Origin: a virus
Taxonomy: Duplodnaviria; Caudoviricetes
DNA length: 64,000 bases
Virus record (IMG/VR): IMGVR_UViG_3300005670_000019
Direction: 5' to 3' (one strand)
The notes under the pieces were generated by a model. The model was not told the DNA's origin. It saw only the letters and a program-made list of their open reading frames with translations, and searched no databases. The number at the start of each line of letters is the position of its first letter. The first letter of the stretch is position 1. The translations under genes were made by a program, and so were the position numbers. This document shows, one piece after another, positions 5,901 through 64,000 of this stretch.

Positions 5901-6559
5901 CTATACATCTTTTCAAAATATAGACTTCCAAAAGCACTAATCGTATTTTCCACTTCTTTTGCAGGTTCATTGATACTAGACACAAAAGAATTGTGTTTCT
6001 TCATCAAATTCTCAACTGGAACGGGGATTTGGATTTTGTACTTATAATTTAGTGGGTTATTTTTGCGATTGCTTTTGTTTCCTTTGCGGGGAAGAGTTTC
6101 TCTATAGTCTTCTGGTAAGAACTCACGATCCCAGTCATTTCTTTTTGTGAAGATGTAGGTCCAAATCTTTTTTGCAGCGTTTGTGATTCCAACAGTATCT
6201 CGAACAATCCATCCTCCCAAAGAGGAAAGAAGATCATACATAAAAGGACCATATGAATGTTCGGCAGCTACAGTATCGACTTCATATGCGTCGATTGGGC
6301 TTTCATAGTTGGCAGTAAAAACTCCAAAAACAACGCCTCGGCGTATATCTTGTATAGCCTTTCTTCGGCTTTCATGGTCTGTAAAAACAGGATATGTGTC
6401 AAACACTTTCTTTACTTGTTCCGGGGAATATAAAACAGCTTTCATTCTTGTTGAACCTTTGTAAACAAACAAAGCCAGATTTTGCTGCTCTATTTCTTGA
6501 ACTGACTTTGCTACTTCTTCAAGATCACCTTCAAAAATAAGTTGTTTGATTCCAATCAT
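5894..6559 (-). CDS. Hypothetical protein, possible GNAT-like fold; possible head-internal protein
   Basis: N-terminus MIGIKQLIFE resembles the LxE prohead-protease leaders of T4-like internal proteins; SYGPFMYD and AKKIW resemble GNAT motifs. Confidence 0.45.
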   Translation of the reverse strand: MIGIKQLIFEGDLEEVAKSVQEIEQQNLALFVYKGSTRMKAVLYSPEQVKKVFDTYPVFTDHESRRKAIQDIRRGVVFGVFTANYESPIDAYEVDTVAAEHSYGPFMYDLLSSLGGWIVRDTVGITNAAKKIWTYIFTKRNDWDREFLPEDYRETLPRKGNKSNRKNNPLNYKYKIQIPVPVENLMKKHNSFVSSINEPAKEVENTISAFGSLYFEKMYSY

Positions 6560-8907
6560 TAGAAATCCATTCCAATCTTGAACATGATTTTATCTCCAGT
6601 CTTTTTCACAATTGGTTGAGCCATTTGTGTTTTCATGATGATGTTCATGTTGTCATCATGAATATAGACGTTTGTAACATACACAAATTTTTGATCAATC
6701 TCGTTTACATTTGAAGAAGCTGACAGAGACATGTATGATGGATTACTTGAAGAGGTGTACATCAATGGATAAGCTTGCAAAGAATATTTTGCGACATGAA
6801 TATCGTTACTTCCCTGAAACCCTATCTCAAACTGTTGCTCGCCAAGAAAATACAATTGGGGAGCTTTGATAAGCACAATTCCTTCATTGTAGAAAATGTT
6901 TCCAACTGATGCCCATGAAGCATGATGACTTTCCGTATCAGCTCTATACAAATTTCCAAATCCATCATCTTTGATTAGAACAGACATACCAGCCGAAGAA
7001 CTTAGCGATGTGTCTTTCAATAAGAAAGTTCCTGGTTTGATTTGTTGACCATAAAACATGTTTGAGATATCAAACAAAACAACTTGATTTGAAGAGGTAT
7101 CTCTTGTTCTGTGAAGGATGGCATAGCTGTTTGGATTTGCTCCCGCAATATTCTCTGGAGAGGCTCCTATCATTTCATCAACGATTGAACTAGAAAGTGC
7201 GATTAATCCTTGAGAAGTGTAAAATTCTCCGATTTGGTTATTCAATGAAATCCAACCGGGATTATAAACACCAAGGTCATTCAACGAAGAAGATGGCGAC
7301 AAGGAATTGATCAAATCAAAATTTGGAACGAACTTACCATTGTCACATGGGTAAGCAAGGTATTGACGATATCTGTTTGAGCCCGTCGTATACAAGAATG
7401 CATTTGCTGTAAGTTCAGTTGTTGTCGTTGTGGAAATAATACTTGCAGACAATGCCCACAATCTTGGATAGTAACCTCTTACAAACTCTCTTGTAAAATT
7501 CTCAAGGTTCATGTATTGACCACCAACCGAATATGCGATAAATGGATTAAATGGAGTTGTGGTTGTTCCATCTCTTTCTTGAAATGGCGTTGTAAGAACT
7601 CCACCAAAGCCATTCAACGATTGTCTTGTTGGTGCTTCTCTCGTAAAAAAAGGAGGAACATAAAACTTCAAACTTCCAGAAGTTGTCGAAGCTCCACCTG
7701 AAACATACATAGAAATTTCATGATCCAACAAATATTTGTCAAATAGTTTCAAATCATGTATTTCAGCACTTAGTGGATTTGAAAATGCAAATACTGTAGG
7801 AGCAAACACTCCATCAGTTGTATCAAGTTCCAACAAACCTTCTCTTGTTGCTGTATCAGCAGCAAAAAATCTACTCAGAGCACTTGTTCCAGTGTTTGGA
7901 CCGTTGTAATAATTTCCTATACACAATACAGAGGGTTCTCCATATCGATAGGAGCCCATATCAACACTTCCGGTACTTCCAATGGAGGAAGTTGGCAAGA
8001 CAAATGTTCCAGCCTCCAGACCGTTTACAACAAATGAACCAGAGCCAAGATTGTATCTATCTCCCCATCTAACAGTAACATGGTTCCACTTATTTCTTTC
8101 AAGAACGTTATCATCTGAAAAAATTGTATAAGTCCCAGCGGTAGCTAGTGAAGGAGAAACGTTAGCACTGGAAGAAAGTTGTAACAGTAATCTGTATTTG
8201 TCTGGATATCCGTTTATGTCTCTATGGGAGCCTGTGATCAAAGATAGAGCATATGCGCCCGTAAGATGCATAATTGTTCCGGCTCTATATTCATTGCCAG
8301 GATTGTCTGTTGTTTGCACCGGCTTGATCCAGAAATCAAATGAGAATGCTCCTGTTACACCATAAACTGATGCACTTGGATCATTTCCAACTGAGGCAGT
8401 TGGATTTGGGTATAGAAGTACAGCGTTACTTGGAAACATTGAACTTGTTCTAAAGTTCAAGCAATGATAGTTTGAAAATCCATAATGTGCTGTTGGATAG
8501 TTTGCACGATAAAATGGCATCAACACCTTTGAAGTTACAACTTTAGACTGATAAAGTTTGTTCAAAGTAAAAGGAGGGTTATATCGATAGATTTGAAGTT
8601 GTTGTCCAAGTCTAGCGGAAGTAGTTTGAGAATTAACTTCACCAAGATAAGTTTGAAGTTCACTTTGAATATTAGAAGAACCAGTATTTCTAGTTATTTC
8701 CAACCGTAGTGTTTCCAAATTCTTATCATTGAAGATTGAACCTGTGAACATCGAAAGAGGAAAGACTTCTTTTTCAGAAGCCGATCGTCTTGAAAACAAA
8801 TTGACAGCACCCGAAACTCCAAGCGATGATGAAATAAAGCTTCGAGAAGGATGCGTTTCAATTGTAAAGACTTCAAAATTATCAGGTGTTATTTTGTGCA
8901 AAGACAT
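6559..8907 (-). CDS. Virion baseplate/tail protein with LamG-like domain and C-terminal tail-collar-like segment
   Basis: FSFDFWIKP, KWNHVTVRW, IHDLKLF (LamG); C-terminal VYIHDDNMNIIMKTQMAQPIVK. Confidence 0.7.
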   Translation of the reverse strand: MSLHKITPDNFEVFTIETHPSRSFISSSLGVSGAVNLFSRRSASEKEVFPLSMFTGSIFNDKNLETLRLEITRNTGSSNIQSELQTYLGEVNSQTTSARLGQQLQIYRYNPPFTLNKLYQSKVVTSKVLMPFYRANYPTAHYGFSNYHCLNFRTSSMFPSNAVLLYPNPTASVGNDPSASVYGVTGAFSFDFWIKPVQTTDNPGNEYRAGTIMHLTGAYALSLITGSHRDINGYPDKYRLLLQLSSSANVSPSLATAGTYTIFSDDNVLERNKWNHVTVRWGDRYNLGSGSFVVNGLEAGTFVLPTSSIGSTGSVDMGSYRYGEPSVLCIGNYYNGPNTGTSALSRFFAADTATREGLLELDTTDGVFAPTVFAFSNPLSAEIHDLKLFDKYLLDHEISMYVSGGASTTSGSLKFYVPPFFTREAPTRQSLNGFGGVLTTPFQERDGTTTTPFNPFIAYSVGGQYMNLENFTREFVRGYYPRLWALSASIISTTTTTELTANAFLYTTGSNRYRQYLAYPCDNGKFVPNFDLINSLSPSSSLNDLGVYNPGWISLNNQIGEFYTSQGLIALSSSIVDEMIGASPENIAGANPNSYAILHRTRDTSSNQVVLFDISNMFYGQQIKPGTFLLKDTSLSSSAGMSVLIKDDGFGNLYRADTESHHASWASVGNIFYNEGIVLIKAPQLYFLGEQQFEIGFQGSNDIHVAKYSLQAYPLMYTSSSNPSYMSLSASSNVNEIDQKFVYVTNVYIHDDNMNIIMKTQMAQPIVKKTGDKIMFKIGMDF

Positions 8908-8925
8908 AACCCAACTCCCTCGATT

Positions 8926-10095
8926 TCAATAATCGAGGCGAAGTTTTAGAGTTACATCACGCTCATTGTCTTTCAAGATTGGTCGAGAGGTTTTGCCAAC
9001 AGCAAGCAAGTTGTTGTTTGCATCATAAAGACCAACAGTTGTGAAAAACACAAATGATTGTTGAGTTTCTTCTTGACCTTCGTCGATTACAACAATTCGA
9101 TTATTTTCATCCGTATATGTTGGGTTTGATGAATAGTTGAACTCATCGGCACCGAGGCGAACAAAGACATTTGTTGTGTTGATTTCAGTAACATTCTGGA
9201 ATGTCATTGCTGTTTGTGCAGTGGATCCAGAAGCAAATCTTGTAAATGCAAAGTGGTCGACAATATCATCGATACTTGCAGAAGCCAAGAAGTAGATCAT
9301 TGATGAAGAGAAGTTTGGAACAACGCCAGCAACATTCACTGCATCAATTGAACCAGAGATACTTTGCTGCATATCAAATGAACGAGAGACGTCAAATACG
9401 GCAATGCCTTGATCCAAGAAAAGAAGTCCAACCATCTGTGATGTGTCAGCAGAATCAACGATTGTTGAGACTTGCCCACCAAACTCATATTCTTTGTTCT
9501 GGCTCGAACCAATATCACTGTAAATCTTCGTCGGACTTCCTCCAGAAACAGGAGAAAGCATATTTGCTCCGGCAAGTTTTGAAGCTGTTGGAAACACTCG
9601 CATTGCAAACGTTTCTCTTTTCATTCCATCACGAGCAAAAAGTCGTTTGAAACAAACAAACATTGCTTCATGAATTTCAAAAGTTGAAGAACCGGATCTC
9701 ATTGTGAAGATTTGATCTTCACTTCCGAGAAGTTTTTGAGCAAACGTTCGATAGAGATCAAGTTTTTCTCTCATCATCAAAGATGATTGAGGAAAAAGAT
9801 ACTTTCCATTCGAATCGATTGAAGCATTTGTAATGCTCATGATTTGACTTCCTGTAGATACTCCAACTGTCAAATCTAAAATTGGGTTTGCTGTTTGAAG
9901 AGTAAAGTCTTGGTCAAAGACCGTTTGCCACAAAGAAGATGTTACTCCGGGACCAACACCTCCAGTAACAAAAACTTGATACTTCTTTCTAGTTGTGCTC
10001 TCAGAGATATCTTGATCAACAACATCAACAAGTTGGTTCAAAAATGAACGAGAACGTTTGATATCCTCATTTGATAATGATTTGAAAATAGCCAT
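8926..10095 (-). CDS. Virion baseplate/tail protein (C-terminal tail-collar-like segment)
   Basis: EFNYSSNPTY...TTVGLYDANNNLLAVGKTSRPILK...LRLDY; context. Confidence 0.7.
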   Translation of the reverse strand: MAIFKSLSNEDIKRSRSFLNQLVDVVDQDISESTTRKKYQVFVTGGVGPGVTSSLWQTVFDQDFTLQTANPILDLTVGVSTGSQIMSITNASIDSNGKYLFPQSSLMMREKLDLYRTFAQKLLGSEDQIFTMRSGSSTFEIHEAMFVCFKRLFARDGMKRETFAMRVFPTASKLAGANMLSPVSGGSPTKIYSDIGSSQNKEYEFGGQVSTIVDSADTSQMVGLLFLDQGIAVFDVSRSFDMQQSISGSIDAVNVAGVVPNFSSSMIYFLASASIDDIVDHFAFTRFASGSTAQTAMTFQNVTEINTTNVFVRLGADEFNYSSNPTYTDENNRIVVIDEGQEETQQSFVFFTTVGLYDANNNLLAVGKTSRPILKDNERDVTLKLRLDY

Positions 10096-10108
10096 TCTTT
10101 ATTTACCT

Positions 10109-10822: not shown

Positions 10823-10848
10823 TATGAACTCCGATTATTTGTCATCTA

Positions 10849-10857
10849 CTAAATAGT
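10849..10857 (-). promoter_or_regulatory. Candidate late promoter (ACTATTTAG)
   Basis: Matches the TANTTA motif found before several late genes; lies in the intergenic gap upstream of 10822. Confidence 0.45.
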
Positions 10858-10861
10858 TCAT

Positions 10862-16725: not shown

Positions 16726-16735
16726 TCTTTCACCG

Positions 16736-19174: not shown

Positions 19175-19184
19175 GGTAAATTCT

Positions 19185-20170: not shown

Positions 20171-20221
20171 ATGGTTTCAGCTTTCATGGTTTTCTTTCTT
20201 CTTTTCATTTGAATGCATTTT

Positions 20222-20250: not shown

Positions 20251-20268
20251 TAAACCAAGGAGAATATT

Positions 20269-45828: not shown

Positions 45829-46982
45829 CCTTTGTAAGAGTTTACAACAGAAACGATATGTTCTCTGTCTTCATCTGTAAGCCACCATCCAACAGGAATA
45901 CAAAGATGAGTTTCGTCAAACAATCCAACAAACTCTAAATCATCTTTTTTGAACATGGAAAAACATGTGTATTGATCATTTCGAACATGAACAACATCCG
46001 AAGCAATCCCATTTTCTTGAAGATATGTTTGAAACTTTCTTCTATCTGAAGAATTATTCAAGAAAATCGTGTAAAGCCACCAAGAAGGTTCAGACACCAA
46101 CGTGTTTACTTTTGTTTTGCCAATCAAAGGATTGTTGATGTACATGTCAAAGTAGGCAGCATTCATCTTATGCTTCCTAATAATGTCTTGAAGATATGGC
46201 AATTGAAGTAGACCAATAGTGGCGTTGGTGTCATTCATATGATATTTGAAGCCAGCTTCACAGATATTTTGACTCCACTTGGAACCTTCATACTCACGGC
46301 TCAATCCAAACCATCGAAGTTTGCGCGCACGCCGAGCCCACGAAGGACCTTCACTGTCTTTATTGAAAGGACAAAAAGCAACGGCACCACCATCACCTGT
46401 TGTTAGATGTTTGATTGCCTGAAACGAGAAACACGTTATTGTTCCATGATTGTCAAAACAATCTTCTCCAACAAGAACTTTCTTCTCTGTCCATTTTGCA
46501 CCCAAGGCATGTGCTGCATCAATTACCAAATAGATTCTTCTTTTTTGAAGAAACTCAAGGATTGATGGGTCAAAAGGAATGCCGCCCCACATAACAGCAA
46601 CAACTGCTTTTGTTTTATCCGTAACCAAACGCTTTACGGAATCCAAGGCAATGTTACCTGTGGCTGGATTGATGTCTGCCCAAACAATTTTGGCACCTCG
46701 ATGAACTAGTGGCTCATTTGTAGCAGCACAAGTCATCGGGGATGAAATCACTTCATCACCCTTACCAATATTCAAACAAGCATAAGCAAGATCAAGTGCT
46801 GATGTTCCAGAGTTTGTTAGGACCACATTTTCGTTCTTGATGAACTTTCCAAACTCTTGTTCAAACTTTGTTGCAACAGGTCCCTCGGACACCATTCCAC
46901 TATCCCAAACTTTTTGTATAGCTTCTCCGATTCCTTCGGGTTTATGTACTTTGAAAAGCGGGATTGTTTTTTCGATTGTCAT
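45825..46982 (-). CDS. DegT/DnrJ/EryC1/StrS PLP-dependent sugar aminotransferase
   Basis: NSGTSAL, DAAHALG, FSFQAIKHLTTGDGG, GFKYHMND. Confidence 0.95.
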   Translation of the reverse strand: MTIEKTIPLFKVHKPEGIGEAIQKVWDSGMVSEGPVATKFEQEFGKFIKNENVVLTNSGTSALDLAYACLNIGKGDEVISSPMTCAATNEPLVHRGAKIVWADINPATGNIALDSVKRLVTDKTKAVVAVMWGGIPFDPSILEFLQKRRIYLVIDAAHALGAKWTEKKVLVGEDCFDNHGTITCFSFQAIKHLTTGDGGAVAFCPFNKDSEGPSWARRARKLRWFGLSREYEGSKWSQNICEAGFKYHMNDTNATIGLLQLPYLQDIIRKHKMNAAYFDMYINNPLIGKTKVNTLVSEPSWWLYTIFLNNSSDRRKFQTYLQENGIASDVVHVRNDQYTCFSMFKKDDLEFVGLFDETHLCIPVGWWLTDEDREHIVSVVNSYKG

Positions 46983-47935
46983 CTTTTTGTTTTCTCCATG
47001 TATGATTTTATCATCTCATCGAGAGAACTTTCAAGCTTTCGCTGCTGTTTCCATCCAAGCTTCTTTGTTTTTGAATATTCAAGGGCATAACGGACGTCGG
47101 CACCAGAACGATCACTTGACATATCAGCTACGTTTTCAAATGTTGTTCCAAATTTTTGCGCAATCATTGAGACGATTTCTTTTACAGAATATTCTTCATC
47201 TGATGCAATGTGATATGAAGTGTTTCTCTTTCCCTTTTCTATGATCTTGAGGATAGCTTCAACATTATCTTCAACATGAATCCAGTTTCTTACATAAGAA
47301 CCTGAACCATGGACAGGGACCTTTTTACCTAAAATCATGTTTGTAATGGCGCGTGGTATCAACTTTTCGCTATGTTGACGAGCGCCATAATTGTTGGTCG
47401 TTCTTGTGATGATATATGGAATTCCATATGTTCTTCCCCAAGCAACAACGAGTTGTTCTGCTGCTGATTTTGAAGCTGAATATGGGTTGCTTGGTTTGTG
47501 GCGATCGTTCTCACGAAACCCAACACCCTTTTCCTTGTCTCCAAAGACTTCATCCGTACTGATCTGAATGAAAAGGGGATAGGCGTGCTCCCAGCCTTTC
47601 TCCATATTCTCGACTTTTTTGTTCTTGAGCAACTCAAGTAGATTATGGACGCCTTCAATGTTGCTTTTCAAAAATGGATCGGAGGTTGTGATTGAGTTGT
47701 CAACGTGACTTTCTGCTGCAAAATTTACCAAGAAATCACATCGAGGAAGCGAAGTCAATTCGCTAATATCAGCTTCAATAAACTTGTAGTCGCCTTCAAA
47801 CTCAAGATTTCTATTTGCTGCATAAGTCAATTTGTCAATATTGACAACTGAGTGTCCTTGTGAAAGGACTTTCTCAATGAAGTGACTTCCAATAAACCCA
47901 CAACCGCCAGTAACCAAAAATGTTTTCTTGTTCAT
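46979..47935 (-). CDS. rmlB: dTDP-glucose 4,6-dehydratase
   Basis: TGGCGFIGS, DKLTYA, NFAAESHVD, ISTDEV, PYSASK, NNYG, EKLIP. Confidence 0.93.
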   Translation of the reverse strand: MNKKTFLVTGGCGFIGSHFIEKVLSQGHSVVNIDKLTYAANRNLEFEGDYKFIEADISELTSLPRCDFLVNFAAESHVDNSITTSDPFLKSNIEGVHNLLELLKNKKVENMEKGWEHAYPLFIQISTDEVFGDKEKGVGFRENDRHKPSNPYSASKSAAEQLVVAWGRTYGIPYIITRTTNNYGARQHSEKLIPRAITNMILGKKVPVHGSGSYVRNWIHVEDNVEAILKIIEKGKRNTSYHIASDEEYSVKEIVSMIAQKFGTTFENVADMSSDRSGADVRYALEYSKTKKLGWKQQRKLESSLDEMIKSYMEKTKR

Positions 47936-48426
47936 AATCTTTTTTCCATGAAAATCTCTTCAAAAGTTTCTCCATCTTTTCTTGTATGAAAACCACGAGA
48001 AATTTCTACGAAGCCGAGATCCATGTATAGGTTATGAGCAATATGATTTTTTGAAAAAACTTTCAACGAGGCTTTTGAAAAATTGTTCAATTTCAAAAAC
48101 TCAAAAAACAAACGATAAAAAGGTTTGGACAATTTCCTTCCTTGAAACATTGGGGATATGTCCATTCCAATCATAATAGTTTTTTCAATTTGATTGGAAG
48201 TTCTAAAATATCCAATTGAATGTCCATTTAGTTCGGCAATAAAAAAAGAAGGGCTTTCTCTATCAAACCAACTGAACGTTTCCTCAAGACTAAAAAAGGT
48301 GTTGTCATGCAAATTCTGACGAACTAAATTCCGCACCTCATTGTAAAATGAAACATCGTCAGACGTCATTTTTCTAATTGCGAAAGATCCAGATTGGATG
48401 CTGTCAATGGTGAATAAAGAAGTCAT
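47932..48426 (-). CDS. GNAT N-acetyltransferase (PseH-like)
   Basis: FQGRKL, L.V...N..A..LY..LGF; start moved from 48489 to ATG 48426. Confidence 0.8.
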   Translation of the reverse strand: MTSLFTIDSIQSGSFAIRKMTSDDVSFYNEVRNLVRQNLHDNTFFSLEETFSWFDRESPSFFIAELNGHSIGYFRTSNQIEKTIMIGMDISPMFQGRKLSKPFYRLFFEFLKLNNFSKASLKVFSKNHIAHNLYMDLGFVEISRGFHTRKDGETFEEIFMEKRL

Positions 48427-49162
48427 TTCTATACAGTGAGGTAAATCTAAATCCGGCGTGCCACAGCTCGGTCGGAAATCCAACTTCACCGTAGTCTATT
48501 CCATCTATTTGATGCTCATACTTTACTGTTTGATTTCCTTTGTGAAACACCCCAATCGCTTCTTCGATTCGGCACAGTCGCATTTTTGTGGTAAAGTAAA
48601 AGCCGCCGTCGGTCCAATACTCACATTCTCTCATTTTTTTTCGAGCATTGCCCCGTGATGCTGTAGTTTTGTATTCGGCTATTACAGAAGTGGAGCCGGT
48701 TAGAGTAAATTCTCCAACGTAAATTATGTCTGGTGTTAGTTTGACCTTAGCAGCGTCGAACCAATCAATCTCATTTGAATAGAAATCTTCTTCAAAATGG
48801 GCAACATGAACATCATTTGAGAAGTTGCCAACAAACTCTTTCCACAAAGTCCAAAGTGCAGCGATTGTGCCACCCCAATTGTACATAAACAACATTTGAA
48901 GATCATTTGGAATGTGGCAGTCTCGAAACAGTTTGGTCAAGTCCTGTTCATAATCATCTAAATTATCAACAGAACAAACAATGACAGGAAGGACTTTCAA
49001 ACCTTGTTTTCTTAGTTTTGAGATTTGTTTGAGATGTCCAACAATATTTTTTGTTTTGTTTCTACTCAGATAGTAACAAACAGAATAGATCAAGTCATAT
49101 TCTTCATTGAAGTTGGCAAAACCTCCATTCCATTTATTCTCAATAAAATAGAGACTTCTCAT
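48404..49162 (-). CDS. Putative glycosyltransferase-like protein
   Basis: N.GG, HFEEDF (DxD-like), TDGGFYF; cluster context. Confidence 0.45.
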   Translation of the reverse strand: MRSLYFIENKWNGGFANFNEEYDLIYSVCYYLSRNKTKNIVGHLKQISKLRKQGLKVLPVIVCSVDNLDDYEQDLTKLFRDCHIPNDLQMLFMYNWGGTIAALWTLWKEFVGNFSNDVHVAHFEEDFYSNEIDWFDAAKVKLTPDIIYVGEFTLTGSTSVIAEYKTTASRGNARKKMRECEYWTDGGFYFTTKMRLCRIEEAIGVFHKGNQTVKYEHQIDGIDYGEVGFPTELWHAGFRFTSLYRNDFFIHH

Positions 49163-49166
49163 GAAA

Positions 49167-49175
49167 CTAAATATT
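49167..49175 (-). promoter_or_regulatory. Candidate late promoter (AATATTTAG) inside the glycan cluster
   Basis: Identical to the 9-mer at 20162; 4 nt upstream of ATG 49162; overlaps the upstream stop codon. Confidence 0.4.
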
Positions 49176-49586
49176 TGATTTTATCAAATCATCCCAGGAA
49201 ACATATTTGATTGTATCTGGATTGTTCGGATGCCATGCTTTTGAGGGACAATTAACGATTGTACCAATGGAGCTTCCACGAGAAACAAATCTTACAGGAA
49301 TGTTCTCTTCCAAAATCAACGTACTGTATTCTTGGGGACGTTCTTCATCATGAAGGTTGTATGTGCAAACAACTCCATTTACCAAAACCTCAATGTCAAC
49401 AGTTCCAGTGATTGCAGTCACAAAATACTTTCTTTCTTTGTGAAGAATTGGACCTTTGACTGTATTTGGAAGCATAGTTGTCACATACACCATTTTCGGG
49501 TCGTAATCTGGATGTTCCCAGTCTTTGAAGACAGGCATCATATCACCTTCTGGCGTTGAGATTTTCTTAGTTGAGAAGTATTTCAT
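49167..49586 (-). CDS. Cupin-fold NDP-sugar epimerase/isomerase (RmlC/WxcM-like)
   Basis: VYVTT..P..VKGP.LH, V.AI.G.V.I; cluster context. Confidence 0.65.
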   Translation of the reverse strand: MKYFSTKKISTPEGDMMPVFKDWEHPDYDPKMVYVTTMLPNTVKGPILHKERKYFVTAITGTVDIEVLVNGVVCTYNLHDEERPQEYSTLILEENIPVRFVSRGSSIGTIVNCPSKAWHPNNPDTIKYVSWDDLIKSNI

Positions 49587-50173
49587 AATCTGACAATAGA
49601 CATTCCAGGGAAACGTTCATCAATAACCGTGTAGGGAATTGTTGTTTCACAAATTGGTTTCTTGTTGTATTTGACCATCCACTCGATTTGATCTCGCTCA
49701 GGAGTTCCTCCTTCAAAAACCATTAGAGCTCCCTTTGTTTGAGGGCGGTCCTTCAACATGTCATACAACTTTTGAAGTTTGTCTCCATCATTTGAAATAT
49801 CAACATGAAGCAAATCAAACGGATCAGGATTTGCTGCCCAATCAAAGATGTCAAGTTCTCCAAGAGTAATCCAGTCACCTAAATTGTTTTCCAAAATTCG
49901 ATTTGAAACGGTTGCAAAATCTCCATGTTTGTGTTCATAGTTTTCCCAAAGGTCATATCCATAAACATGACCGCGGTTATTTAAAACAGAAACAGCTTTC
50001 CCTAACCAAAGTGTTGAGTACCCGTTCAGAACTCCAAACTCAATAACGATTTTTGGTTTCTCTTGGAGAACAAGAGAAGCAAGTTTCTTTCCCATTTCAT
50101 TTTGCGTATATGAGGATTCTAGGTGACGAAAAGGATCTGGTTCAATAAGATATGAATTATAATTTGCCATCAA
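49583..50173 (-). CDS. Class I SAM-dependent methyltransferase
   Basis: IEFGVLNGYST, GYDLW, FDLLHVDI. Confidence 0.82.
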   Translation of the reverse strand: MMANYNSYLIEPDPFRHLESSYTQNEMGKKLASLVLQEKPKIVIEFGVLNGYSTLWLGKAVSVLNNRGHVYGYDLWENYEHKHGDFATVSNRILENNLGDWITLGELDIFDWAANPDPFDLLHVDISNDGDKLQKLYDMLKDRPQTKGALMVFEGGTPERDQIEWMVKYNKKPICETTIPYTVIDERFPGMSIVRL

Positions 50174-50814
50174 ACTTCTCTTGTAACATTAGCAAAACTG
50201 TCATGCCAAAAACATGAAACCTTATCAACAACCTTCAAAGACTTATTCTTTGTTTTGATAAAGTGAAAAAGGTGATCTTCAATTGAAACCTTGTAATCAA
50301 CCATGGGCTGCAAATTTTCCTCAGACAAATATTCACAAAAATCATCTGTCTTCATAGAAAACAATCCAGTAAAAAATTGATTTTTGTTTGCCAAAGAAAA
50401 TATGTTGTCCGGGTGTTCTCTGAACTTCTTGAAGAAGGTGTCGTCTTTCAGAGTCAGTCTTGGCTCAAAATGAATGATGTAATCGTAATCTTGAAGCAAA
50501 CCCGAATTCTTCAAAAGAAGATAGTTTTCAACAATACCGGCACCCTTATTTTTTGAACCAAAAACATTGCTCTCTGTTGGAATAAAAAACCAATCATCTT
50601 TCCAGAGACTCAGAATTTCTGGTGGAATTTCATCCTTGTCCTTGACGGTATTTTCAATTAACAAAACGGAAAACTCATCATTGGGGAGAGTTTCACAGAC
50701 TTCTTTGAGTGCTTCAAACCCGTCGAGGAATTCTTGTTTCCTTTGTTTTCCCTGAGAATGGTACGGATTATTTGGTGGATTGAGAGTGAATAAACAAGTT
50801 ATTAGGGTTCTCAT
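50170..50814 (-). CDS. Putative glycosyltransferase-like protein
   Basis: IENT, NKGAG, YDYIIHFEPR, FFTGLF; ATGA coupling. Confidence 0.45.
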   Translation of the reverse strand: MRTLITCLFTLNPPNNPYHSQGKQRKQEFLDGFEALKEVCETLPNDEFSVLLIENTVKDKDEIPPEILSLWKDDWFFIPTESNVFGSKNKGAGIVENYLLLKNSGLLQDYDYIIHFEPRLTLKDDTFFKKFREHPDNIFSLANKNQFFTGLFSMKTDDFCEYLSEENLQPMVDYKVSIEDHLFHFIKTKNKSLKVVDKVSCFWHDSFANVTREV

Positions 50815-51683
50815 AACCAAACCTCTTGTTGTCCTGCTGTGTCACGATAGTCCATTGAGTCGACGTTTGAATAATCGTAATCCTTCAATCGAAAGTTTGT
50901 CCAGCCGCCGCAATAAGGACGTTCAAGAGAAACAGTTCCAGCAATTGCGTTGATGCCTGTTCCTACATCCAGAAACACAACGTTTCTTGGTGCATTTTTT
51001 CGAAGCCATCCCAACAAACCATTTTTAGTGTGTCCGATTCCAACAAGGAAAATTTTCGATGAGCACTTTTCTAACTGTTCCAGCACCATTTTTCGTGTTT
51101 GATAAATGTTGTCGCAAGCAAACTTTTCCGGGATACTAACGTAGTCTTCGAAGCGTTCAATTCCAAGATAGTTCTGATACTCTTCATGCTTCATCAGCTC
51201 TTGAATAAGTTTCATTTTTTCAGAACCGCCTAACAAACCGATCTTTCCACGAAACTGCTGAAAAACCCATCTCGATGTTACAGCAGCATAAGTAAACTCG
51301 GCAGCAAAATCAATTGGAGTTTCTGGAATTGCTTCAAAGAACTTCATTCTGTTTTCTGGATAGAGTTCAACAAGATAGTAATCGTTCAATCTAGCATCCT
51401 TCCGAATTTCATCCATTGGAAGTTCTGAATATGGTCTGGACAACGCTCGTTTACCAGGCGTAGCGGAACCATGTGAAATTTCTTTCAAGAAATAGTAATC
51501 ACCATCTCCAAACTTGTAGTAAGTTGTTGTGTATTCGTGATCTTCAGCAGCCCGAACATCAGCAATTAGATTTGATTTGAAATCTTCCCAGTTTTCTTGG
51601 AAATCTGGATCGCTTGCAGGATTGTTAAAACATGGATGCGTATCTCTTTGTTCTGTTCCTTCTATCTTATATTGATCAAGCAT
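50811..51683 (-). CDS. Putative GT-D-fold (DUF1792-like) glycosyltransferase
   Basis: YKFGDGD (cf. RFGDGE), LVGIG..K, FLDVG. Confidence 0.6.
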   Translation of the reverse strand: MLDQYKIEGTEQRDTHPCFNNPASDPDFQENWEDFKSNLIADVRAAEDHEYTTTYYKFGDGDYYFLKEISHGSATPGKRALSRPYSELPMDEIRKDARLNDYYLVELYPENRMKFFEAIPETPIDFAAEFTYAAVTSRWVFQQFRGKIGLLGGSEKMKLIQELMKHEEYQNYLGIERFEDYVSIPEKFACDNIYQTRKMVLEQLEKCSSKIFLVGIGHTKNGLLGWLRKNAPRNVVFLDVGTGINAIAGTVSLERPYCGGWTNFRLKDYDYSNVDSMDYRDTAGQQEVWL

Positions 51684-52305
51684 TCTTCACTCTCCAGATG
51701 CTAAGACTTTTACGCCACCAAGGATAGAATGCAGGGTTTTGATGACTACTTTCAAGTAGCTTGGCAGTTTGATTTTCAAGCAAATAAAACCCATTTTGCT
51801 CCATCATTTCACGGAACTGTTCAAACTTCATCGGGTTCAAATGTTGATGATTTGGATCATTTGCACGATCATGTTCACCGCCGGAATCCGACCAACTCAT
51901 AATGAGATACTTTCCTGTAAGCTTCTTGAGATTTTCCAAAAAGGCAGAAGTATATGCAGGGTCAATGTGTTCACCAACTTCAGTGCAAAGCACTATATCG
52001 AACTTGTCGTTTTCAGAAATCGGGTCGCGCATGTCATGGATAACGATCTCCTCGGTAATGGTAGATGGTGAAGCATCCTTATGGTATTGAAAATACTCAT
52101 ATCCTCGAACTTTACAATAAGGAAAACTTCTCTTGACCTCATTTATCAAATGTCCGGTTGCACATCCGACATCACAAAACGATTTGACTTTTTGAAAGTC
52201 AAAAACACCTGAGAGGGTTTTGTAAAAGGCAATGTATGGGGAAGGGTCTTTTCTAACTTCTTCGTCTTTTTGATATCTGTTTGTAATGTCAACTTTTTCA
52301 GTCAT
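51676..52305 (-). CDS. Class I SAM-dependent methyltransferase
   Basis: CDVGCATG, FDIVLCTEVGEHI, H.N; ATGA coupling at 52305. Confidence 0.88.
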   Translation of the reverse strand: MTEKVDITNRYQKDEEVRKDPSPYIAFYKTLSGVFDFQKVKSFCDVGCATGHLINEVKRSFPYCKVRGYEYFQYHKDASPSTITEEIVIHDMRDPISENDKFDIVLCTEVGEHIDPAYTSAFLENLKKLTGKYLIMSWSDSGGEHDRANDPNHQHLNPMKFEQFREMMEQNGFYLLENQTAKLLESSHQNPAFYPWWRKSLSIWRVKNA

Positions 52306-53330
52306 TTGAAACACTCCAAGTATCTTCCGGCTGCTTGAATTAGTGTATGGTGTTCAAGAATATATTGTCGAGGGTTGAACATTGACAACTTCAAGAAAAA
52401 ATCTTCAACATCTTTTTTTGATAAACTATTTCCAACAATTTTTCCACATCTTTCATCAAAAAAAGGAACAGATGTTGCTGGAGCATTATTTCCATTATAT
52501 TCCCAAACCGTTTTATCAAGAACAAAAATCGGAACATTCATACTGAGAATTTGCATAACAGCTATTCCTTGCGATTCTGTATTGTCCAACAGTACACAAA
52601 ATTGAGAGTTTTCACAAATTTCGTGCAGTTTTTCTGGTTTGTAATTCCCATATTCAATTACTTCCACATTCATTCCTTGATTTTTGAAAACTTGTTTTAC
52701 CAAACTGAGCTCTTCTCTTGTTCTACCTTTGAAATAAATAAAACAGTTCTGTTGAGATTTTGAGTTTCCAGAAGGTTTCCACATATCTGTATCAATTCCT
52801 GCGCTCCAAATTTTTAGCTCGGGAGATACAAATGTCGCGTCAATTTTTTTAATTTTTTCAAAATCTTTAACATATTTGTCATATACCCATTTTGATGGAA
52901 CAAGAAATGTTTTCAAACCTGAAATAATTTGGGGCATCTCTGATGGCAAAACACAGATATTAGGTCCTGCCACAATGTTATTTGTTTTTCTATCAATTAG
53001 ACTATTTGTTAATTGCAGAATTCCTAAATTAGGTGAGGTTGAAGTTACTTCAACGTTTAATTTCTGGAGTCCTTTCAATAAGGATTGAACGACTTGTCCC
53101 GGACCATTTACAGAGGAATTTGAATAGGATAAATTTACGTCTTTTTTCTTTGCACGAACATAAACAGCTTTGGCAAAATCAAAACTTTCAAACTCTAGTG
53201 AAGTTCTATAAAATCCATTCTTCCCAAAGAAATCATCTGCTTCTGATATTGATCTAACATTTTGAGAACCATTCAAACTAACAACAGTTTTGATTTGTTC
53301 ACTTAAATTATCAAGTATTGTTTCTGTCAT
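52302..53330 (-). CDS. Glycosyltransferase (GT-B-like)
   Basis: LVPSKWV, GIDT..W, ESQGIAVMQILSMNVPI. Confidence 0.8.
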   Translation of the reverse strand: MTETILDNLSEQIKTVVSLNGSQNVRSISEADDFFGKNGFYRTSLEFESFDFAKAVYVRAKKKDVNLSYSNSSVNGPGQVVQSLLKGLQKLNVEVTSTSPNLGILQLTNSLIDRKTNNIVAGPNICVLPSEMPQIISGLKTFLVPSKWVYDKYVKDFEKIKKIDATFVSPELKIWSAGIDTDMWKPSGNSKSQQNCFIYFKGRTREELSLVKQVFKNQGMNVEVIEYGNYKPEKLHEICENSQFCVLLDNTESQGIAVMQILSMNVPIFVLDKTVWEYNGNNAPATSVPFFDERCGKIVGNSLSKKDVEDFFLKLSMFNPRQYILEHHTLIQAAGRYLECFK

Positions 53331-54157
53331 ATTGATTTCATTTCGTATTTCATTTCAAAATGGACACTGGGAGTTTCAAGACCATTGAACGGCTCGTAAT
53401 CAATCTCAATTCCTTGGAGATACAGGTCGTTCAACTTTGAAAGCTGAGCTTCTTCAAGATTAGCATGACGGTTATTGAAAGTATCCTGAGTTCTGTTAGC
53501 AGGTACATTCACTAATTTTGCTTGATTGTATGCCAAAAGGAATGGATGCGGGATCGGATTCTGACTAAGAGCTGCTTCAAAAGAATTTGGATTCCAATAG
53601 TTCAATCTCTGAACTAATGGGAGGATTTCTTGTGTTCGAAACACGGTTCCATCTACAGACATTGGATAACCAAAATCCCCATCTTTCCCATGCCAAGCAT
53701 AACAAAAAAATCCTTCATTATGACTTTCAGGAACTTTCATTACTTGATCAATTGCATAACAATAAGTTTTTTGTGGGTCCAATCGTAAACTCAATCCGAG
53801 AATATCTTCGTCTTTTCGAAAGAAAAGAAATTCAGGATCATTCATAGAGAATTCATGTGTGAAAACAATGTCGTCAACCAAAAACATTGTAAATTCTCTG
53901 GTCGACTGAATTGCAGATATTGTGGCTTCCTTGAAGGAAGTCTGCTCTTCGTTTATCCATGAAACATATCCTGTTGCCTTATCTTTACGTCCCCATTTCT
54001 TTATGAGTTTTTTATAACCATCTACGAAGCTTTGATTACTTGCACGAAAAATTACAGTAACGTTTTGATAGTAAGGCTTGGCAAAATTCTTCTCTATTGA
54101 TCTGAGAAGGAGGTCAAGTTGTGCTGCACGGTCTTTTGAAAAGATTATAACATTCAT
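53327..54157 (-). CDS. Glycosyltransferase (GT-A-like)
   Basis: IIFSKDRAAQL..LL.S, MFLVDD, YPMSVDG. Confidence 0.75.
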   Translation of the reverse strand: MNVIIFSKDRAAQLDLLLRSIEKNFAKPYYQNVTVIFRASNQSFVDGYKKLIKKWGRKDKATGYVSWINEEQTSFKEATISAIQSTREFTMFLVDDIVFTHEFSMNDPEFLFFRKDEDILGLSLRLDPQKTYCYAIDQVMKVPESHNEGFFCYAWHGKDGDFGYPMSVDGTVFRTQEILPLVQRLNYWNPNSFEAALSQNPIPHPFLLAYNQAKLVNVPANRTQDTFNNRHANLEEAQLSKLNDLYLQGIEIDYEPFNGLETPSVHFEMKYEMKSI

Positions 54158-54378
54158 TTGTTACAATCTCCTTCATCATCAATTTCTTCACACATCATTT
54201 TGTACCAATCCCAAAGAGGTTTTCTTCTTTCCGCCATTCTGATGTATCTCTGTCTTTCTTTTTCACTTGGAGCTATTTGAGCTCTTTGATAAAGAATTGC
54301 GGGTGTAGCAAATTTATTTTCTTTGTACAGAGTTTCTCTCAAAGAATTTAGGAAATCTTTTTTTCCAATTGCCATCAT
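54154..54378 (-). CDS. Small hypothetical protein
   Basis: 74 aa, overlapping-stop coupling on both sides. Confidence 0.6.
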   Translation of the reverse strand: MMAIGKKDFLNSLRETLYKENKFATPAILYQRAQIAPSEKERQRYIRMAERRKPLWDWYKMMCEEIDDEGDCNK

Positions 54379-55124
54379 TTACCTTCCAACCAAGCATTGT
54401 TAGTGCTCGTATTTCTTCTATAGCAATAAAGCTTCTCTCGAAGAACTGAGGTTTTTTGAAGAAGTAACGTCAACTTTGTATTGTGATCACTATCTTCTGC
54501 CTTCTGACATCGGAGTCCAAGATTGCCTGGTAAGAACTTCATTCCATGGGTCCAGAGGGATTTGTAGAATACTGTGGAGGCTCCGTGAACTTCAAACTCT
54601 CCAGTGTAGTAGTGATTTACTCCAGGGGTATTGAAGCCCAAATGGACCGCGCGGACGACCGTTTGATGATCATCGATTGGAGCCATTGAAATGGGGTATT
54701 CAACTTTGTTGTTCTTGAACTTTGAAAGTGTTTCCTGATCAAAACAATGAACAAATCCACAAAGATTGTGGAATGAACCCATCTTGATCATTGTCGCAAC
54801 TTGACGCTCAATACGTTGAGGCATTGAAGCATCGTCAGCATCTTGAAGTGCAATTAATTCGCCTGTGGCTTGTTCAATGCCAACATTCAAAGCAAACCAT
54901 TTCCCACTGTTTTTTTCCAATGAAATGAGTTTGACAGGAAATGGTTTTTGATCATAATCTTCTTTCAACTTCTTCATCTTTTCAAGAGAGTCATCAGTTG
55001 AACCATCATCAACCATGATTATTTCAAGATTGTCATAAGTTTGATTGACAACAGAAAGAAATGCTTCCTCAAGATATTGAGAATGATTATAGTTTGTAAA
55101 GATAACTGATACTTTTTTACTCAC
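54375..55124 (-). CDS. Glycosyltransferase family 2
   Basis: VSVIFTNYN, VDDGSTD, ALNVGI, QDADD, AED. Confidence 0.93.
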   Translation of the reverse strand: MSKKVSVIFTNYNHSQYLEEAFLSVVNQTYDNLEIIMVDDGSTDDSLEKMKKLKEDYDQKPFPVKLISLEKNSGKWFALNVGIEQATGELIALQDADDASMPQRIERQVATMIKMGSFHNLCGFVHCFDQETLSKFKNNKVEYPISMAPIDDHQTVVRAVHLGFNTPGVNHYYTGEFEVHGASTVFYKSLWTHGMKFLPGNLGLRCQKAEDSDHNTKLTLLLQKTSVLREKLYCYRRNTSTNNAWLEGK

Positions 55125-60996: not shown

Positions 60997-61845
60997 TTAG
61001 ACAGATATTCCATACCTTGCATTGAAGTATTGTCTAATATTGGTCTGTTCTTGAGTGCTTAGTTGTTTGTTGAAAATTACCAACTCTCCAACTTCTCCAA
61101 GAGTTTCATCAAACACTCTCATATCAACAGCATTCAAGTTGTTGAAACCAACATTACTTGCAGATACAGGTGTGTTGTTATTTACTCTTACATAAGCTCT
61201 AGAGTCAGCAACATCACGATAGAATTCAACTAAGAATGGTTGATCTATGGAACCAACCGATGCTGTAACTCTTTGTCCAGTGCTCAGCCATGTAAATCCA
61301 TAAACAACTGTCTCCACTTCAAACATGTGATATAGACCCCACCACCCTGGTGAATCACCAACTATTCTATGATTTGTCCACCAAGAAAGATTTGAATCGG
61401 TTGCAGGCAAACGTCGAATTCCAACATAAAACACATGCCACGACGAACCGCCACTTGTACCGGAAAGATAGGTATTTTGGAGTCCAGCAATTCCATATGA
61501 ACTGTCACTTTTTGAAACAAATGTTCTTGAGCCGCTTACAACTAATGCAAATGGCGAAGTATTTACCCAAGAAACACTTCCGGTTCTTGGTGTCCACGAG
61601 ATGACATTTCCTGTAACTTCTGCATCATCTCCAACCATCCAAAATGTAAGTGCAGCACTCGATGCTTCATCAGGATTTAGTCCGGGATCTACGGGAGGAG
61701 TAAGATTTGGCTCGATCCAAGGATCCTCACTTGTAAATCCAATCACCGTTGGAAAGATCGCATCATTAGGTGGAAAGGCATCAGTGAATAAAAAGTTGCT
61801 TCCACTCGCAGCTAATCTAAATCTGTATAAAGGTCGTTTGATCAT
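60997..61845 (-). CDS. Putative tail-fibre-associated protein (lectin-like beta-sandwich)
   Basis: W..GD, V.SW, GEVGELVIFNKQLS..E...I..Y...RYG (LamG-like end). Confidence 0.65.
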   Translation of the reverse strand: MIKRPLYRFRLAASGSNFLFTDAFPPNDAIFPTVIGFTSEDPWIEPNLTPPVDPGLNPDEASSAALTFWMVGDDAEVTGNVISWTPRTGSVSWVNTSPFALVVSGSRTFVSKSDSSYGIAGLQNTYLSGTSGGSSWHVFYVGIRRLPATDSNLSWWTNHRIVGDSPGWWGLYHMFEVETVVYGFTWLSTGQRVTASVGSIDQPFLVEFYRDVADSRAYVRVNNNTPVSASNVGFNNLNAVDMRVFDETLGEVGELVIFNKQLSTQEQTNIRQYFNARYGISV

Positions 61846-63647
61846 GAGCTGAAAATCAAATCAGAGTTATGGTGAACAATCGCAAGAGAACCTCCGCCAA
61901 TTGTTCCAGAAACTTGAACTTCAACAAGAATGCTTGAAGTGATTATTGAATTGAGATTTGCAGAAGTAAGAACAGTTGGAGTTGTACTTGTTGTATTCAA
62001 TTCAAAAACTCCTGCACCTCCAATTGGAAGATAATAACCATCTGTTATACTGAAAAGGCGAAGATGTGCTGTGTTTAAAGCATCACTTGTGCTTAGAATG
62101 GATCTCATTAGGATAGAGCCAGATTGATGTTCTGAAGATACAATATAGTTTCCCCCAACAGTTTGAGAGTTTGACTGAGTAACTGTTGTATAGTTTCCAA
62201 CAGAAACTCTCGTCGGGAAAGATGAACCTCCACCACCACCACCAGTTGCAGCAAGTTGTGTAAGAGTGTAGCCGCCTGGATTTGAAGTGTCAAAAAATCT
62301 TAGATCGTTACCATCTTTTAGGATGTATGTATCATCTGCCCATGCAAGAGCTCCGGAGGTTTTAATTGAACCTCTAAATGAAGCATACCTTGCTGAAGAA
62401 CCGGAAGTTATTGAGCCTGAAACTACTAAAAATTCATCATTGTTGGCGGAGTTATAGACAGAATCAACTTGATCTGATCTGTCTGTAAGGTAAATCGTTC
62501 CATATCGTTCCGCAACAAATGTGTCAGGATCATCATATTTTGTTCCAACTTTCAGTTCGATAAAACCAGGACTCAAAAATGAATTACCAGCTGCTAAAGA
62601 AATTGTGCCAGGAGCACCATGAGTGCTGAAATCTGAACTGCCTCCATTTCCTGCCACAACAACAAATCGACCACCGGCTCCAGCAACTTCATCAGTGTTT
62701 TCATCATTTCCACCATCTCCAAGATAGAAAGATACATCGCCACCGGCACCTGCATAAATTGGTCCTGAATTAGCTCCAGCATCACCACCATCACCAGTCT
62801 CGACATAGAAATTGCCTCCGGCACCACCGTTACCAGTGCTTCCGGCACCACCATTTCCAGTATAAAATTCAACGCCTCCACCTTGTCCACCAGATGGACC
62901 ACCGGAACCATTTCCGCAGTTGAACGAGAAATTGCCTCCCGAACCTCCTGCACCTTCTACGGTACCTCCACCAAAACCGGAATAGAATTCAAATCCGCCA
63001 CCTGTGCCTCCGCCGCCTCCAAAACCAGAATTATCTTGGTTTCCTCCGTCTCCAGCAACAAAATAATGCTTTCCGCCCGTACCACCCTTTTTATTTCCTG
63101 CTGTTGGACTGTTTCCAGTTCCGGCGTAGTATTCAATATCTCCACCTTGATATCCAATACTTGTGCCAGGTCCCAAACCAGCGTTACCGGCTCTAAGTTC
63201 CAAATTTCCGCCAGATCCAGACACCCCAACATTTGCAGCTCGAACAAGCAAATCTGTAATCAAACCTACTGAATAGTCAGAAACTTCTGCCATTCCGATC
63301 ACAACTTCACTTTCCAAGTTTGGAACATTGGAAAACGTCAAAAAATACTGACCAAGAAAAGCGTTTGATTCCGCAACAGCTATCGTTCCCGAAACTTTTG
63401 TGTCTCCACCAAAGACAACAAGACCACCATTTGACTGATCAATTGTTCCTTTCGAACCGGAAAAGAAAATAAATGTGTCAGCTCCAATAGAACTTGTATT
63501 GAAAATTGCAGTGTTGATATTACCTTGGTTTGCCGGGGTTCCATCAGCAGAAATATCATAAACCAGCAACTTTGCTGGAGTGCCTGTTGAACCAGACGTA
63601 ATAAGTTTATTGGTTCTTACTTGTGAAGCTCTGAAATCGTATGCCAT
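61842..63647 (-). CDS. Glycine-rich tail fibre protein
   Basis: Multiple G.GG / AG.GG.F.F..G.GG repeats; N-terminal DFRASQVRTNKLI. Confidence 0.75.
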   Translation of the reverse strand: MAYDFRASQVRTNKLITSGSTGTPAKLLVYDISADGTPANQGNINTAIFNTSSIGADTFIFFSGSKGTIDQSNGGLVVFGGDTKVSGTIAVAESNAFLGQYFLTFSNVPNLESEVVIGMAEVSDYSVGLITDLLVRAANVGVSGSGGNLELRAGNAGLGPGTSIGYQGGDIEYYAGTGNSPTAGNKKGGTGGKHYFVAGDGGNQDNSGFGGGGGTGGGFEFYSGFGGGTVEGAGGSGGNFSFNCGNGSGGPSGGQGGGVEFYTGNGGAGSTGNGGAGGNFYVETGDGGDAGANSGPIYAGAGGDVSFYLGDGGNDENTDEVAGAGGRFVVVAGNGGSSDFSTHGAPGTISLAAGNSFLSPGFIELKVGTKYDDPDTFVAERYGTIYLTDRSDQVDSVYNSANNDEFLVVSGSITSGSSARYASFRGSIKTSGALAWADDTYILKDGNDLRFFDTSNPGGYTLTQLAATGGGGGGSSFPTRVSVGNYTTVTQSNSQTVGGNYIVSSEHQSGSILMRSILSTSDALNTAHLRLFSITDGYYLPIGGAGVFELNTTSTTPTVLTSANLNSIITSSILVEVQVSGTIGGGSLAIVHHNSDLIFSS

Positions 63648-63657
63648 GTTTATTCCA

Positions 63658-63666
63658 ATAACTATT
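63658..63666 (-). promoter_or_regulatory. Candidate late promoter (AATAGTTAT)
   Basis: TANTTA motif 10 nt upstream of ATG 63647. Confidence 0.35.
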
Positions 63667-64000
63667 CAAATGCCAATACATGTATTGGACTATTAATTTC
63701 TGCACTGCTTGTCAGTATAACATTGTCTGCATCTGCATAGGAACTTGAAAGTTGAACATCGATATCTCCATTTCCAAGAGTATCAAACGCTGTAAACAAA
63801 ACTCTACTAAATGAAGACGTTAATTCTGTGTATGGGATGCTAAACTCATTTCCAGATACCGTAACAGCATTTGCTGAAACCATGAAGGCGCTTCCTGTAA
63901 ATGAACTGGTCACCACTACAGGATAAGTTGTAGAGTAGATTGCACGATATCTGATATTGCCTGCGTATGGTGCTGAGGTTCCAATGTCAAAACCAGTGGT
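63662..64000 (-). CDS. Putative virion protein, 5' end beyond the right edge
   Basis: Frame of ORF 63662..63916 stays open to 64000 (TTGFDIGTSAPYAGNIRYRA...). Confidence 0.65.
   Translation of the reverse strand, partial: TTGFDIGTSAPYAGNIRYRAIYSTTYPVVVTSSFTGSAFMVSANAVTVSGNEFSIPYTELTSSFSRVLFTAFDTLGNGDIDVQLSSSYADADNVILTSSAEINSPIHVLAFE

Follow-up and report, generated by a model that had tools for sequence, protein, structure and literature searches.

What reads a serine-containing tripeptide that recurs throughout the tail proteins of a phage, and could it be a site for the attachment of sugars? The question is raised by a 64,000-nucleotide stretch of DNA from a giant, uncultured phage of the T4-like kind (Duplodnaviria; Caudoviricetes; IMG/VR virus record IMGVR_UViG_3300005670_000019), which was analysed at its full length and is called the window below. 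A preliminary description of this stretch had pointed out that nine virion proteins carry the sequence [ST][GAS]S very often, and had suggested that it arose by convergent selection as the acceptor site of glycosyltransferases (GTs) encoded by the phage itself. We find that the tripeptide excess is real and strong, and that it can be followed through a large group of related phages. That [ST][GAS]S is an O-glycosylation sequon, modified by the products of two adjacent GT4 genes at 41196-43845, is the best reading of the data, and one to which we give even chances.

An excess of a serine tripeptide in virion proteins

We counted matches to [ST][GAS]S in the open reading frames (ORFs) of the window and compared each protein with 2000 shuffles that preserved its composition. 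Counts are given below as observed vs expected, and the label wN denotes the window ORF beginning at position N (w6559, w33177, w41196, w42349). The nine virion ORFs, all on the minus strand, together contained 99 sites vs 31.2 (z 12.9), and composition alone is therefore insufficient to account for the motif. Eight of the nine were also enriched individually; the exception was 61842..63647, which encodes a Gly-rich (20%) protein of 601 aa whose count fits its composition (8 vs 5.3, p 0.15). A scan over all tripeptides ranked SGS (29 vs 6.2) and TSS (25 vs 5.4) first and second in the nine ORFs, and revealed nothing comparable in the other 39 ORFs of the window.

The excess was sensitive to the order and identity of the residues. 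[ST][GAS]T was not enriched in the nine ORFs (23 vs 20.2), SGT, SST, SSG and GSG occurred at expectation, and in a mirror control T[GAS]S outnumbered S[GAS]T by 45 to 15 (p 1.3e-4). Shuffling inside blocks of 6-25 residues raised the expectation to 33-40 sites against the 99 observed, and since the excess survived even in 6-residue blocks (99 vs 40, z 10.6), Ser/Gly-rich loops are not its explanation. Codon use within the motif was that of the background, and 76 distinct 9-mers were found among the 99 sites. The signal therefore lies at the level of the protein and not of the DNA, and a codon effect is ruled out as its cause, as is a DNA-level repeat, of which the preliminary description had also seen no sign. 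Comparison of the nine proteins by blastp detected one paralogous segment pair only, of 95 residues at the C-terminal ends of the proteins at 6559 and 8926. The sites were isolated tripeptides, one per 30-40 residues, in proteins with a Ser content of 11-13%, above that of the other ORFs. All eleven examples that had been quoted from 33177-34790 were present as quoted, but the statement that the motif usually follows a hydrophobic residue was too strong. Hydrophobic residues were in moderate excess around the motif, at 45% of sites only for position -1, 53% for -2 and 55% for +1, against a background of 33%.

The highest site count (22 vs 4.5, z 8.4) was that of the 782-aa virion protein encoded at 6559..8907, a LamG/pentraxin-like jelly roll (Pfam Laminin_G_3). 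The 389-aa virion protein at 8926..10095 had 8 sites vs 2.1; several fibre-like paralogues in two cultured relatives, Flavobacterium phage immuto and Microcystis phage Mel-JY01, carry its domain as well, and in Mel-JY01 blastp matched it to five ORFs in a row, of which most were enriched. Further along were a 411-aa distal baseplate or fibre protein (25000..26235; 7 vs 2.7, orthologues 61 vs 23.9) and an 897-aa baseplate or fibre protein with a LamG domain (26235..28928; Laminin_G_3 E 4e-17; 14 vs 4.1, orthologues 63 vs 22.1). The 1129-aa LamG-domain baseplate protein at 29791..33180 had 19 sites vs 6.4, with 925 vs 266 in 50 orthologues, and the 537-aa protein at 33177..34790, composed of CBM-like and Ig-like β-sandwiches and encoded directly downstream of the gp6-like gene, had 11 vs 3.3, with 686 vs 198 in 68 orthologues. 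Two more enriched ORFs were located at 60997..61845 (282 aa, probably a virion protein; 5 vs 1.3, p 0.012), for which a family search gave no match, and at 63662..64000, an ORF that runs off the window and is represented by its C-terminal 112 residues (5 vs 1.3, p 0.008). To speak of unrelated folds, as had been done, is roughly right, with the qualification that three of the proteins share a LamG domain and two the 95-residue C-terminal segment.

The reported scarcity of the motif elsewhere was borne out. The 39 remaining ORFs held 20 sites vs 26.5, and none was present in the gp6-like inner baseplate wedge protein (34765..36612, minus strand; PHROG baseplate wedge; 0 vs 1.6) or in the gp25-like wedge protein (36609..37094, minus strand; weak Pfam GPW_gp25 match). 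Among 80 gp6-like orthologues the motif was depleted, 45 vs 123, a figure uncorrected for relatedness, and the mirror ratio was reversed (T[GAS]S 24 vs S[GAS]T 42); 75 gp25-like orthologues contained 7 sites vs 21.2. The depletion in these inner wedge proteins is suggestive, and may represent avoidance of the tripeptide at buried assembly interfaces.

The 237-aa product of 10109-10822 is the most Ser-rich protein of its block (13.9% Ser), yet it has 0 sites (expected 1.7), and the same holds for its orthologues in immuto and Mel-JY01.

AlphaFold2 models of w6559 and w33177 (mean predicted local distance difference test, pLDDT, 86.8 and 87.4, respectively) consisted of LamG, CBM-like and Ig-like β-sandwiches, for which Foldseek returned only generic jelly-roll, CBM and Ig-like matches and no known baseplate protein. 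The sites had been expected to lie in surface turns. Instead, the 33 sites of the two models were distributed over strand ends, strand starts, strand interiors, loops and helix N-caps, with a secondary structure (67% coil, 24% strand, 9% helix) equal to that of all Ser residues (61, 28 and 11%), and they were no closer to the edges of elements than random residues. In these two models, both of high confidence, the sites have no common structural role.

Conservation, turnover and distribution of the sites

Relatives were drawn from 80 IMG/VR loci of the same clade (L001-L080), a second, more distant set of 80 loci, and 11 loci from metagenome-assembled genomes (MAGs). w6559 has hundreds of full-length homologues (43-87% identity), and each of the 120 examined was enriched, with 11-24 sites vs about 4. 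In 11 columns of the alignment the motif was present in at least half of the sequences, where it was kept as a degenerate class (in one column TAS 43, TGS 29, TSS 27 and SAS 8; in another TGS 63 and SGS 52) with a near-invariant third Ser. When these conserved columns were deleted, the other sites were still 3.1x enriched over 110 columns, 86 of which were used by <10% of the sequences. The w33177 family had 4 conserved sites and a 2.8x excess of variable sites over 69 columns. About half of the sites are thus conserved across homologues, and the rest shift position while their density is held at about threefold.

Sites 83 and 145 of w33177, the latter found at 97% in the clade, lie in a segment that can be aligned across the whole superclade. 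At the aligned positions there was no motif in immuto, Mel-JY01, LR756508.1 or eight distant contigs; immuto, Mel-JY01 and the eight contigs were enriched elsewhere, and LR756508.1 was not enriched overall. Taken with the turnover of sites, the lack of a motif at homologous positions in enriched distant relatives indicates that density is conserved and positions are not. From these sequence comparisons we conclude that [ST][GAS]S is a motif under selection, not a relic.

Proteins encoded downstream of gp6 were enriched in nearly all of the 160 IMG/VR loci and 11 MAG loci (z 4-12 in the distant and MAG sets), and in the latter two sets genes upstream of gp6 were not. The cultured phages immuto and Mel-JY01, with gp6-like proteins about 30% identical, were enriched alike. 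Genome-wide scans identified 9 enriched ORFs of 136 in immuto and 13 of 184 in Mel-JY01, all in structural modules, and 14 of 285, including the tail sheath, in a 309-kb clade member that is 91% complete (G066, IMGVR_UViG_3300037010_002844). In these scans the portal, terminase, tape measure and major capsid protein were at expectation (the immuto capsid protein, at 3 vs 1.7, was not enriched). Enriched proteins of immuto (MW353176.1) included an unannotated 373-aa protein of the neck/structural region (135031-136152; 17 vs 3.1) and a 1053-aa 'tail spike' (97614-100775; 60 vs 20). Baseplate regions examined as controls showed no enrichment (T4 25 vs 28, S-SM2 31 vs 34, PA5oct 37 vs 25).

Enrichment of the tail sheath in relatives makes the set of targets wider than the baseplate and fibre proteins to which it had been confined. 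Both sheath proteins examined had sites in the variable region only and none in the conserved core, a pattern consistent with exposure of the sites, though weak evidence for it because the core is Ser-poor. Overall, the distribution suggests a tag under selection on virion proteins that are predicted to be exposed, at the baseplate periphery, on the fibres and, in relatives, on the tail sheath. The convergent selection for a short motif on virion proteins proposed in the preliminary description fits these data: the tripeptide is ordered, conserved as a class, turned over at a kept density, and not enriched in non-relatives.

GT4 genes, a sugar island and other parts of the window

w41196 (41196..42359, minus strand) encodes a soluble GT4 glycosyltransferase of 387 aa (Pfam Glycos_transf_1, 37.3 bits), and w42349 (42349..43845, minus strand), always directly upstream of it, a second soluble GT4-type protein of 498 aa (Glycos_transf_1, 28.0 bits); both scores are above the gathering cut-off of the family, 26.4 bits. 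The EX7E motif of w41196, at 274-282, was conserved in 36 orthologues, and the protein is the candidate initiating protein O-glycosyltransferase. In w42349 the EGFGL start of this motif is kept and the second Glu is missing, as seen in 27 orthologues. The genes are arranged in the order w42349, w41196, (40779), 40036, 39056, 37391, gp25, gp6, 33177 and 29791, and this succession from the GT4 pair to the baseplate was kept in about 30 of the 32 loci with at least 7 kb of upstream sequence. As for the two exceptions, L002 has a GT4 gene further along the same contig and the L001 contig is too short to tell. The two GT4s were the only conserved enzymes inside the baseplate module of the clade. 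A sigma factor gene that had been placed next to the pair was not confirmed.

Co-occurrence of the GT4 genes with motif enrichment had been proposed as a check, and the outcome supports it in part. Both enriched cultured phages, immuto and Mel-JY01, have orthologues of the two GT4s as an adjacent pair, located 30-80 kb from the baseplate genes. The 484-kb relative LR756508.1 has only the w42349-type GT and lacks the w41196 type, and its orthologous baseplate proteins were near expectation (1 vs 0.5, 6 vs 2.4, 4 vs 1.1 and 1 vs 0.3). As this is the only GT-poor relative, and a partial negative at that, the association between GT and motif is confounded by phylogeny; together with the synteny, it makes a circumstantial case for these GTs as the enzymes that would use the acceptor site. 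A GT4 search in 52 IMG/VR contigs of the distant set found none, and is uninformative as all are fragments, 3-55% complete. A strong GT4 match was present in 4 of the 11 MAG bins, where absence carries no meaning. Streptomyces phage Faust gave a remote GT match and no motif enrichment, and is likewise uninformative because the similarity covers the C-terminal GT domain only.

The GT4 pair is bordered by an 11-kb sugar island (43895..55124, minus strand), whose genes were assigned with Pfam. It encodes a GDP-mannose 4,6-dehydratase, an epimerase/reductase, a DegT aminotransferase, a second 4,6-dehydratase, a GNAT protein, an FdtA-like protein, two methyltransferases, a GT2 and several unknowns. 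Parts of the island (gmd, epimerase, aminotransferase) recur in a few relatives, in differing combinations. In most relatives the island is missing and a PD-(D/E)XK nuclease gene, at 57201-58088 in the window, adjoins the GT4 pair, so that the sugar island is a variable insert beside the pair. No transmembrane (TM) segment was predicted in any ORF between 41196 and 57194, and no Pfam family of flippases, polymerases, priming transferases or oligosaccharyltransferases (OTases) was present among the GT and sugar genes of the window. Owing to this lack of membrane-bound enzymes and of flippase, polymerase and priming transferase, the system looks cytoplasmic and its acceptor soluble. In virion DNA of immuto, liquid chromatography-mass spectrometry found canonical dA, dC and dT, with dG replaced by fdPreQ1, and no glycosylated nucleoside was reported (PMC10516641). 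DNA without a sugar adduct in a phage with an orthologous GT4 pair suggests that DNA is an unlikely acceptor.

Nearly all genes of the window are on the minus strand, at a GC content of about 0.38. A blastn search of the window against cultured phages gave no match, and a single-protein pattern scan of IMG/VR found no close relative. The window begins with an SbcCD-type fusion at 2-3175, one ORF of >1058 aa that combines a Metallophos nuclease domain like that of SbcD with an ATPase resembling SbcC/Rad50, parts that LR756508.1 and PA5oct encode in separate genes. A structural block (3187-20156) follows, amid which a matrixin-like zinc metallopeptidase gene (5265-5900; Pfam Peptidase_M10, E 2e-6) lies on the plus strand. 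The minus-strand structural genes are then interrupted, at about 20200-25000, by a GC-rich island of small plus-strand ORFs (GC 0.43-0.49), beyond which lies the baseplate block (25000-39466) with the gp6-like wedge protein and the weakly matched gp25-like protein. In immuto and Mel-JY01 the homologues of the 10109 and 8926 genes come directly after the 29791 homologue, from which it seems that the structural module has been split in the clade of the window. Directly downstream of the GT4 pair is 40779-41189, a gene found in only some relatives, whose 136-aa product has a strong transmembrane helix at its N terminus. Between the sugar island, at its GT2 end, and the genes for nuclease and primase lies an IMPDH/GMP-reductase family gene (55117-56160), a homologue of which sits near the baseplate region in LR756508.1. 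Replication genes are found beyond the sugar island.

Possible readers of the tripeptide

The likeliest reading is that the tag is modified, with a sugar attached to one of its residues by the two GT4s. The pair would read Ser/Thr-x-Ser during late infection; in an extended chain both hydroxyls would be placed on one face with the small residue between them. A sugar would be taken from the nucleotide-sugar pool of the host and transferred to the tag, while in the phage of the window the 11-kb island could supply unusual amino-, acetyl- and methyl-sugars derived from GDP- or dTDP-sugars, and the GT2 could extend the glycan. The outcome would be a glycan coat on the distal parts of the tail, in which positions drift and density is kept, with the inner gp6-like and gp25-like proteins avoiding the tag.

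Several observations weigh against this interpretation. LR756508.1 retains one of the two GT4s, and its motif content is in weak excess (z 2.3-2.7 in two proteins), and the GT-motif association, itself circumstantial, rests on shared ancestry and one partial negative. Many of the enriched contigs are fragments in which GT content is unreadable. Searches of PDB sequences and NCBIfam with the GT4s returned generic families with weak E-values (BshA, WbaZ-1, TreT, PBCV-1 B736L), the best PDB sequence match of w42349 being the GT4-like B736L of PBCV-1 (weak, E 3e-5), and nothing in these matches pointed to a protein acceptor. In view of their hydrophobic flanks, some sites could be partly buried, and the figures for depletion in gp6-like proteins are uncorrected for relatedness. 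One clearly non-structural protein was enriched, an HNH/homing-endonuclease ORF of G066 (81837-83567; 5 vs 1.2), where the excess may be due to chance or foreign origin. In the literature, we found no paper on chemical modification in this phage or any relative.

The motif-level evidence (an ordered tag, conserved as a class and turning over) shows only that something reads the tripeptide, and its reader may be other than the GT4 pair. Phosphorylation, acylation, a host enzyme or recognition by an assembly chaperone could each be involved, with the GT4s acting elsewhere, for instance on a small molecule or on precursors of the host envelope. Nothing in the GT4s marks out a protein acceptor, and their distance from the baseplate genes in immuto and Mel-JY01 would suit such a division of labour. 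We think this unlikely, as the genes have no kinase, acyltransferase or other conceivable writer for a conserved neighbour, and the GT4s are the only enzymes conserved within the baseplate module of the clade; the GT-poor LR756508.1 is also motif-poor, and the sugar system is without the membrane export parts needed for envelope glycans. It is in our judgement just as improbable that the tripeptide is left unmodified and represents a lineage-specific structural or biophysical habit of β-sandwich tail proteins, serving turns, strand caps, folding, solubility or hydration, with the presence of the GT4s a phylogenetic coincidence. The enriched proteins are indeed strings of jelly-roll, CBM and Ig-like β-sandwiches, the flanks of the sites are rich in hydrophobic residues as at strand-loop junctions, about half of the sites hold their position within a family, and the GT association is inseparable from ancestry. 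However, a habit of this kind does not sit well with sites in every secondary-structure context and without edge preference, with the exclusion of Thr from position 3 and of mirror peptides from the enrichment, or with a density maintained through turnover, when distant relatives of the same fold do not keep homologous positions and the baseplate proteins of T4, S-SM2 and PA5oct have no excess.

That the excess is an artefact, produced by a composition rich in Ser, Gly and Thr, by low-complexity runs or by paralogous repeats, is an idea to which we attach practically no credence. Ser is more abundant in the enriched proteins than elsewhere, and composition does account for the count of 61842-63647, but the shuffle controls (by composition and by 6-residue blocks), the mirror control and the repeat controls (varied 9-mers and a single paralogous segment pair) refute it, and the Ser-rich protein of 10109-10822 is devoid of sites.

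O-glycosylation by the GT4 pair can be compared with several known systems. To our knowledge, virion glycosylation in phages has so far been shown only for some actinophages. In mycobacteriophages of the Che8 type, phage GTs glycosylate the C-terminal tails of capsid and tail-tube subunits (Freeman et al. 2023, as cited in PMC12619734). As there, the phage of the window has soluble GTs near structural genes, its own virion proteins as proposed targets and a proposed surface glycan coat. Unlike those siphoviruses, the present phages are T4-like myoviruses, with candidate sites, predicted from sequence, that are scattered through the proteins of baseplate, fibres and sheath. For aquatic 'moraphages' of 200-307 kb, a paper describes four core GT families and no sequon, and we found no paper on this tripeptide or on any O-glycosylation sequon of tailed-phage virions.

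The chlorovirus PBCV-1 glycosylates its major capsid protein Vp54 autonomously, with virus-encoded cytoplasmic GTs, by N-linkage at non-canonical acceptor sequences. It resembles the system proposed here in having its own soluble GTs and sugar-nucleotide enzymes, no membrane pathway and a non-canonical acceptor, and differs in being a giant virus of eukaryotes with N-linked capsid glycans and unrelated sequons, so that the likeness is at the level of the family only. GtfA and GtfB, which form the cytoplasmic O-GlcNAc transferase complex of Gram-positive serine-rich-repeat adhesins, are encoded by two adjacent genes for GT4-fold proteins and act on sequences of the Ser-small-Ser type. The GT4 pair shares this adjacency, and one partner, w42349, may be catalytically reduced; however, a PDB sequence search with the GT4s detected no relationship to GtfA or GtfB, and the isolated tripeptides in folded domains are unlike the long tandem Ser-rich repeats of the adhesins. 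Bacteroidota have a general O-glycosylation sequon, D-[ST]-[ALIVMT], which is used by a periplasmic, lipid-linked and host-encoded pathway. That sequon is also of three residues and is found in many unrelated proteins, and one cultured relative infects Flavobacterium, but the sequon itself is a different one, membrane components are lacking here and the motif is also present in a cyanophage relative. Lipid-linked pathways in general, of the Wzx/Wzy or OTase kind, differ from the genes described here by their multi-TM priming transferase, flippase, polymerase or OTase. The N-x-S/T sequons of the N-glycan shields on influenza HA and HIV Env also turn over. By analogy, density is held on exposed surface proteins while positions come and go; the parallel would be one of evolutionary pattern only, as chemistry, enzymes and hosts differ.

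Somewhat short of an even chance, in our estimate, is the broader proposition that glycans, added by cytoplasmic, sequon-directed O-glycosylation, coat the exposed parts of the tail throughout a very widespread superclade of T4-like phages from aquatic and wastewater habitats, whose hosts include Flavobacterium and Microcystis. The sequon would be [ST]-small-S, with positions that evolve like those of animal-virus glycan shields, the writer would be the conserved pair of GT4s, and swappable sugar islands would diversify the glycan. With two relatives in culture, immuto and Mel-JY01, the sequon reading can be tested. If it is true, an O-glycosylation sequon would have been defined for the first time in the virions of tailed phages, and virion glycosylation would follow a simple rule, readable from sequence and applicable to hundreds of abundant environmental phages. 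Cytoplasmic glyco-engineering would gain an attractive tool in a soluble GT pair directed by a sequon of three residues. For the phages themselves, the variable sugar islands would act as a 'serotype' locus, and glycans on baseplate and fibres could bear on how the host is recognised, on how well proteases and grazers are withstood, on stickiness to particles and on antigenicity.

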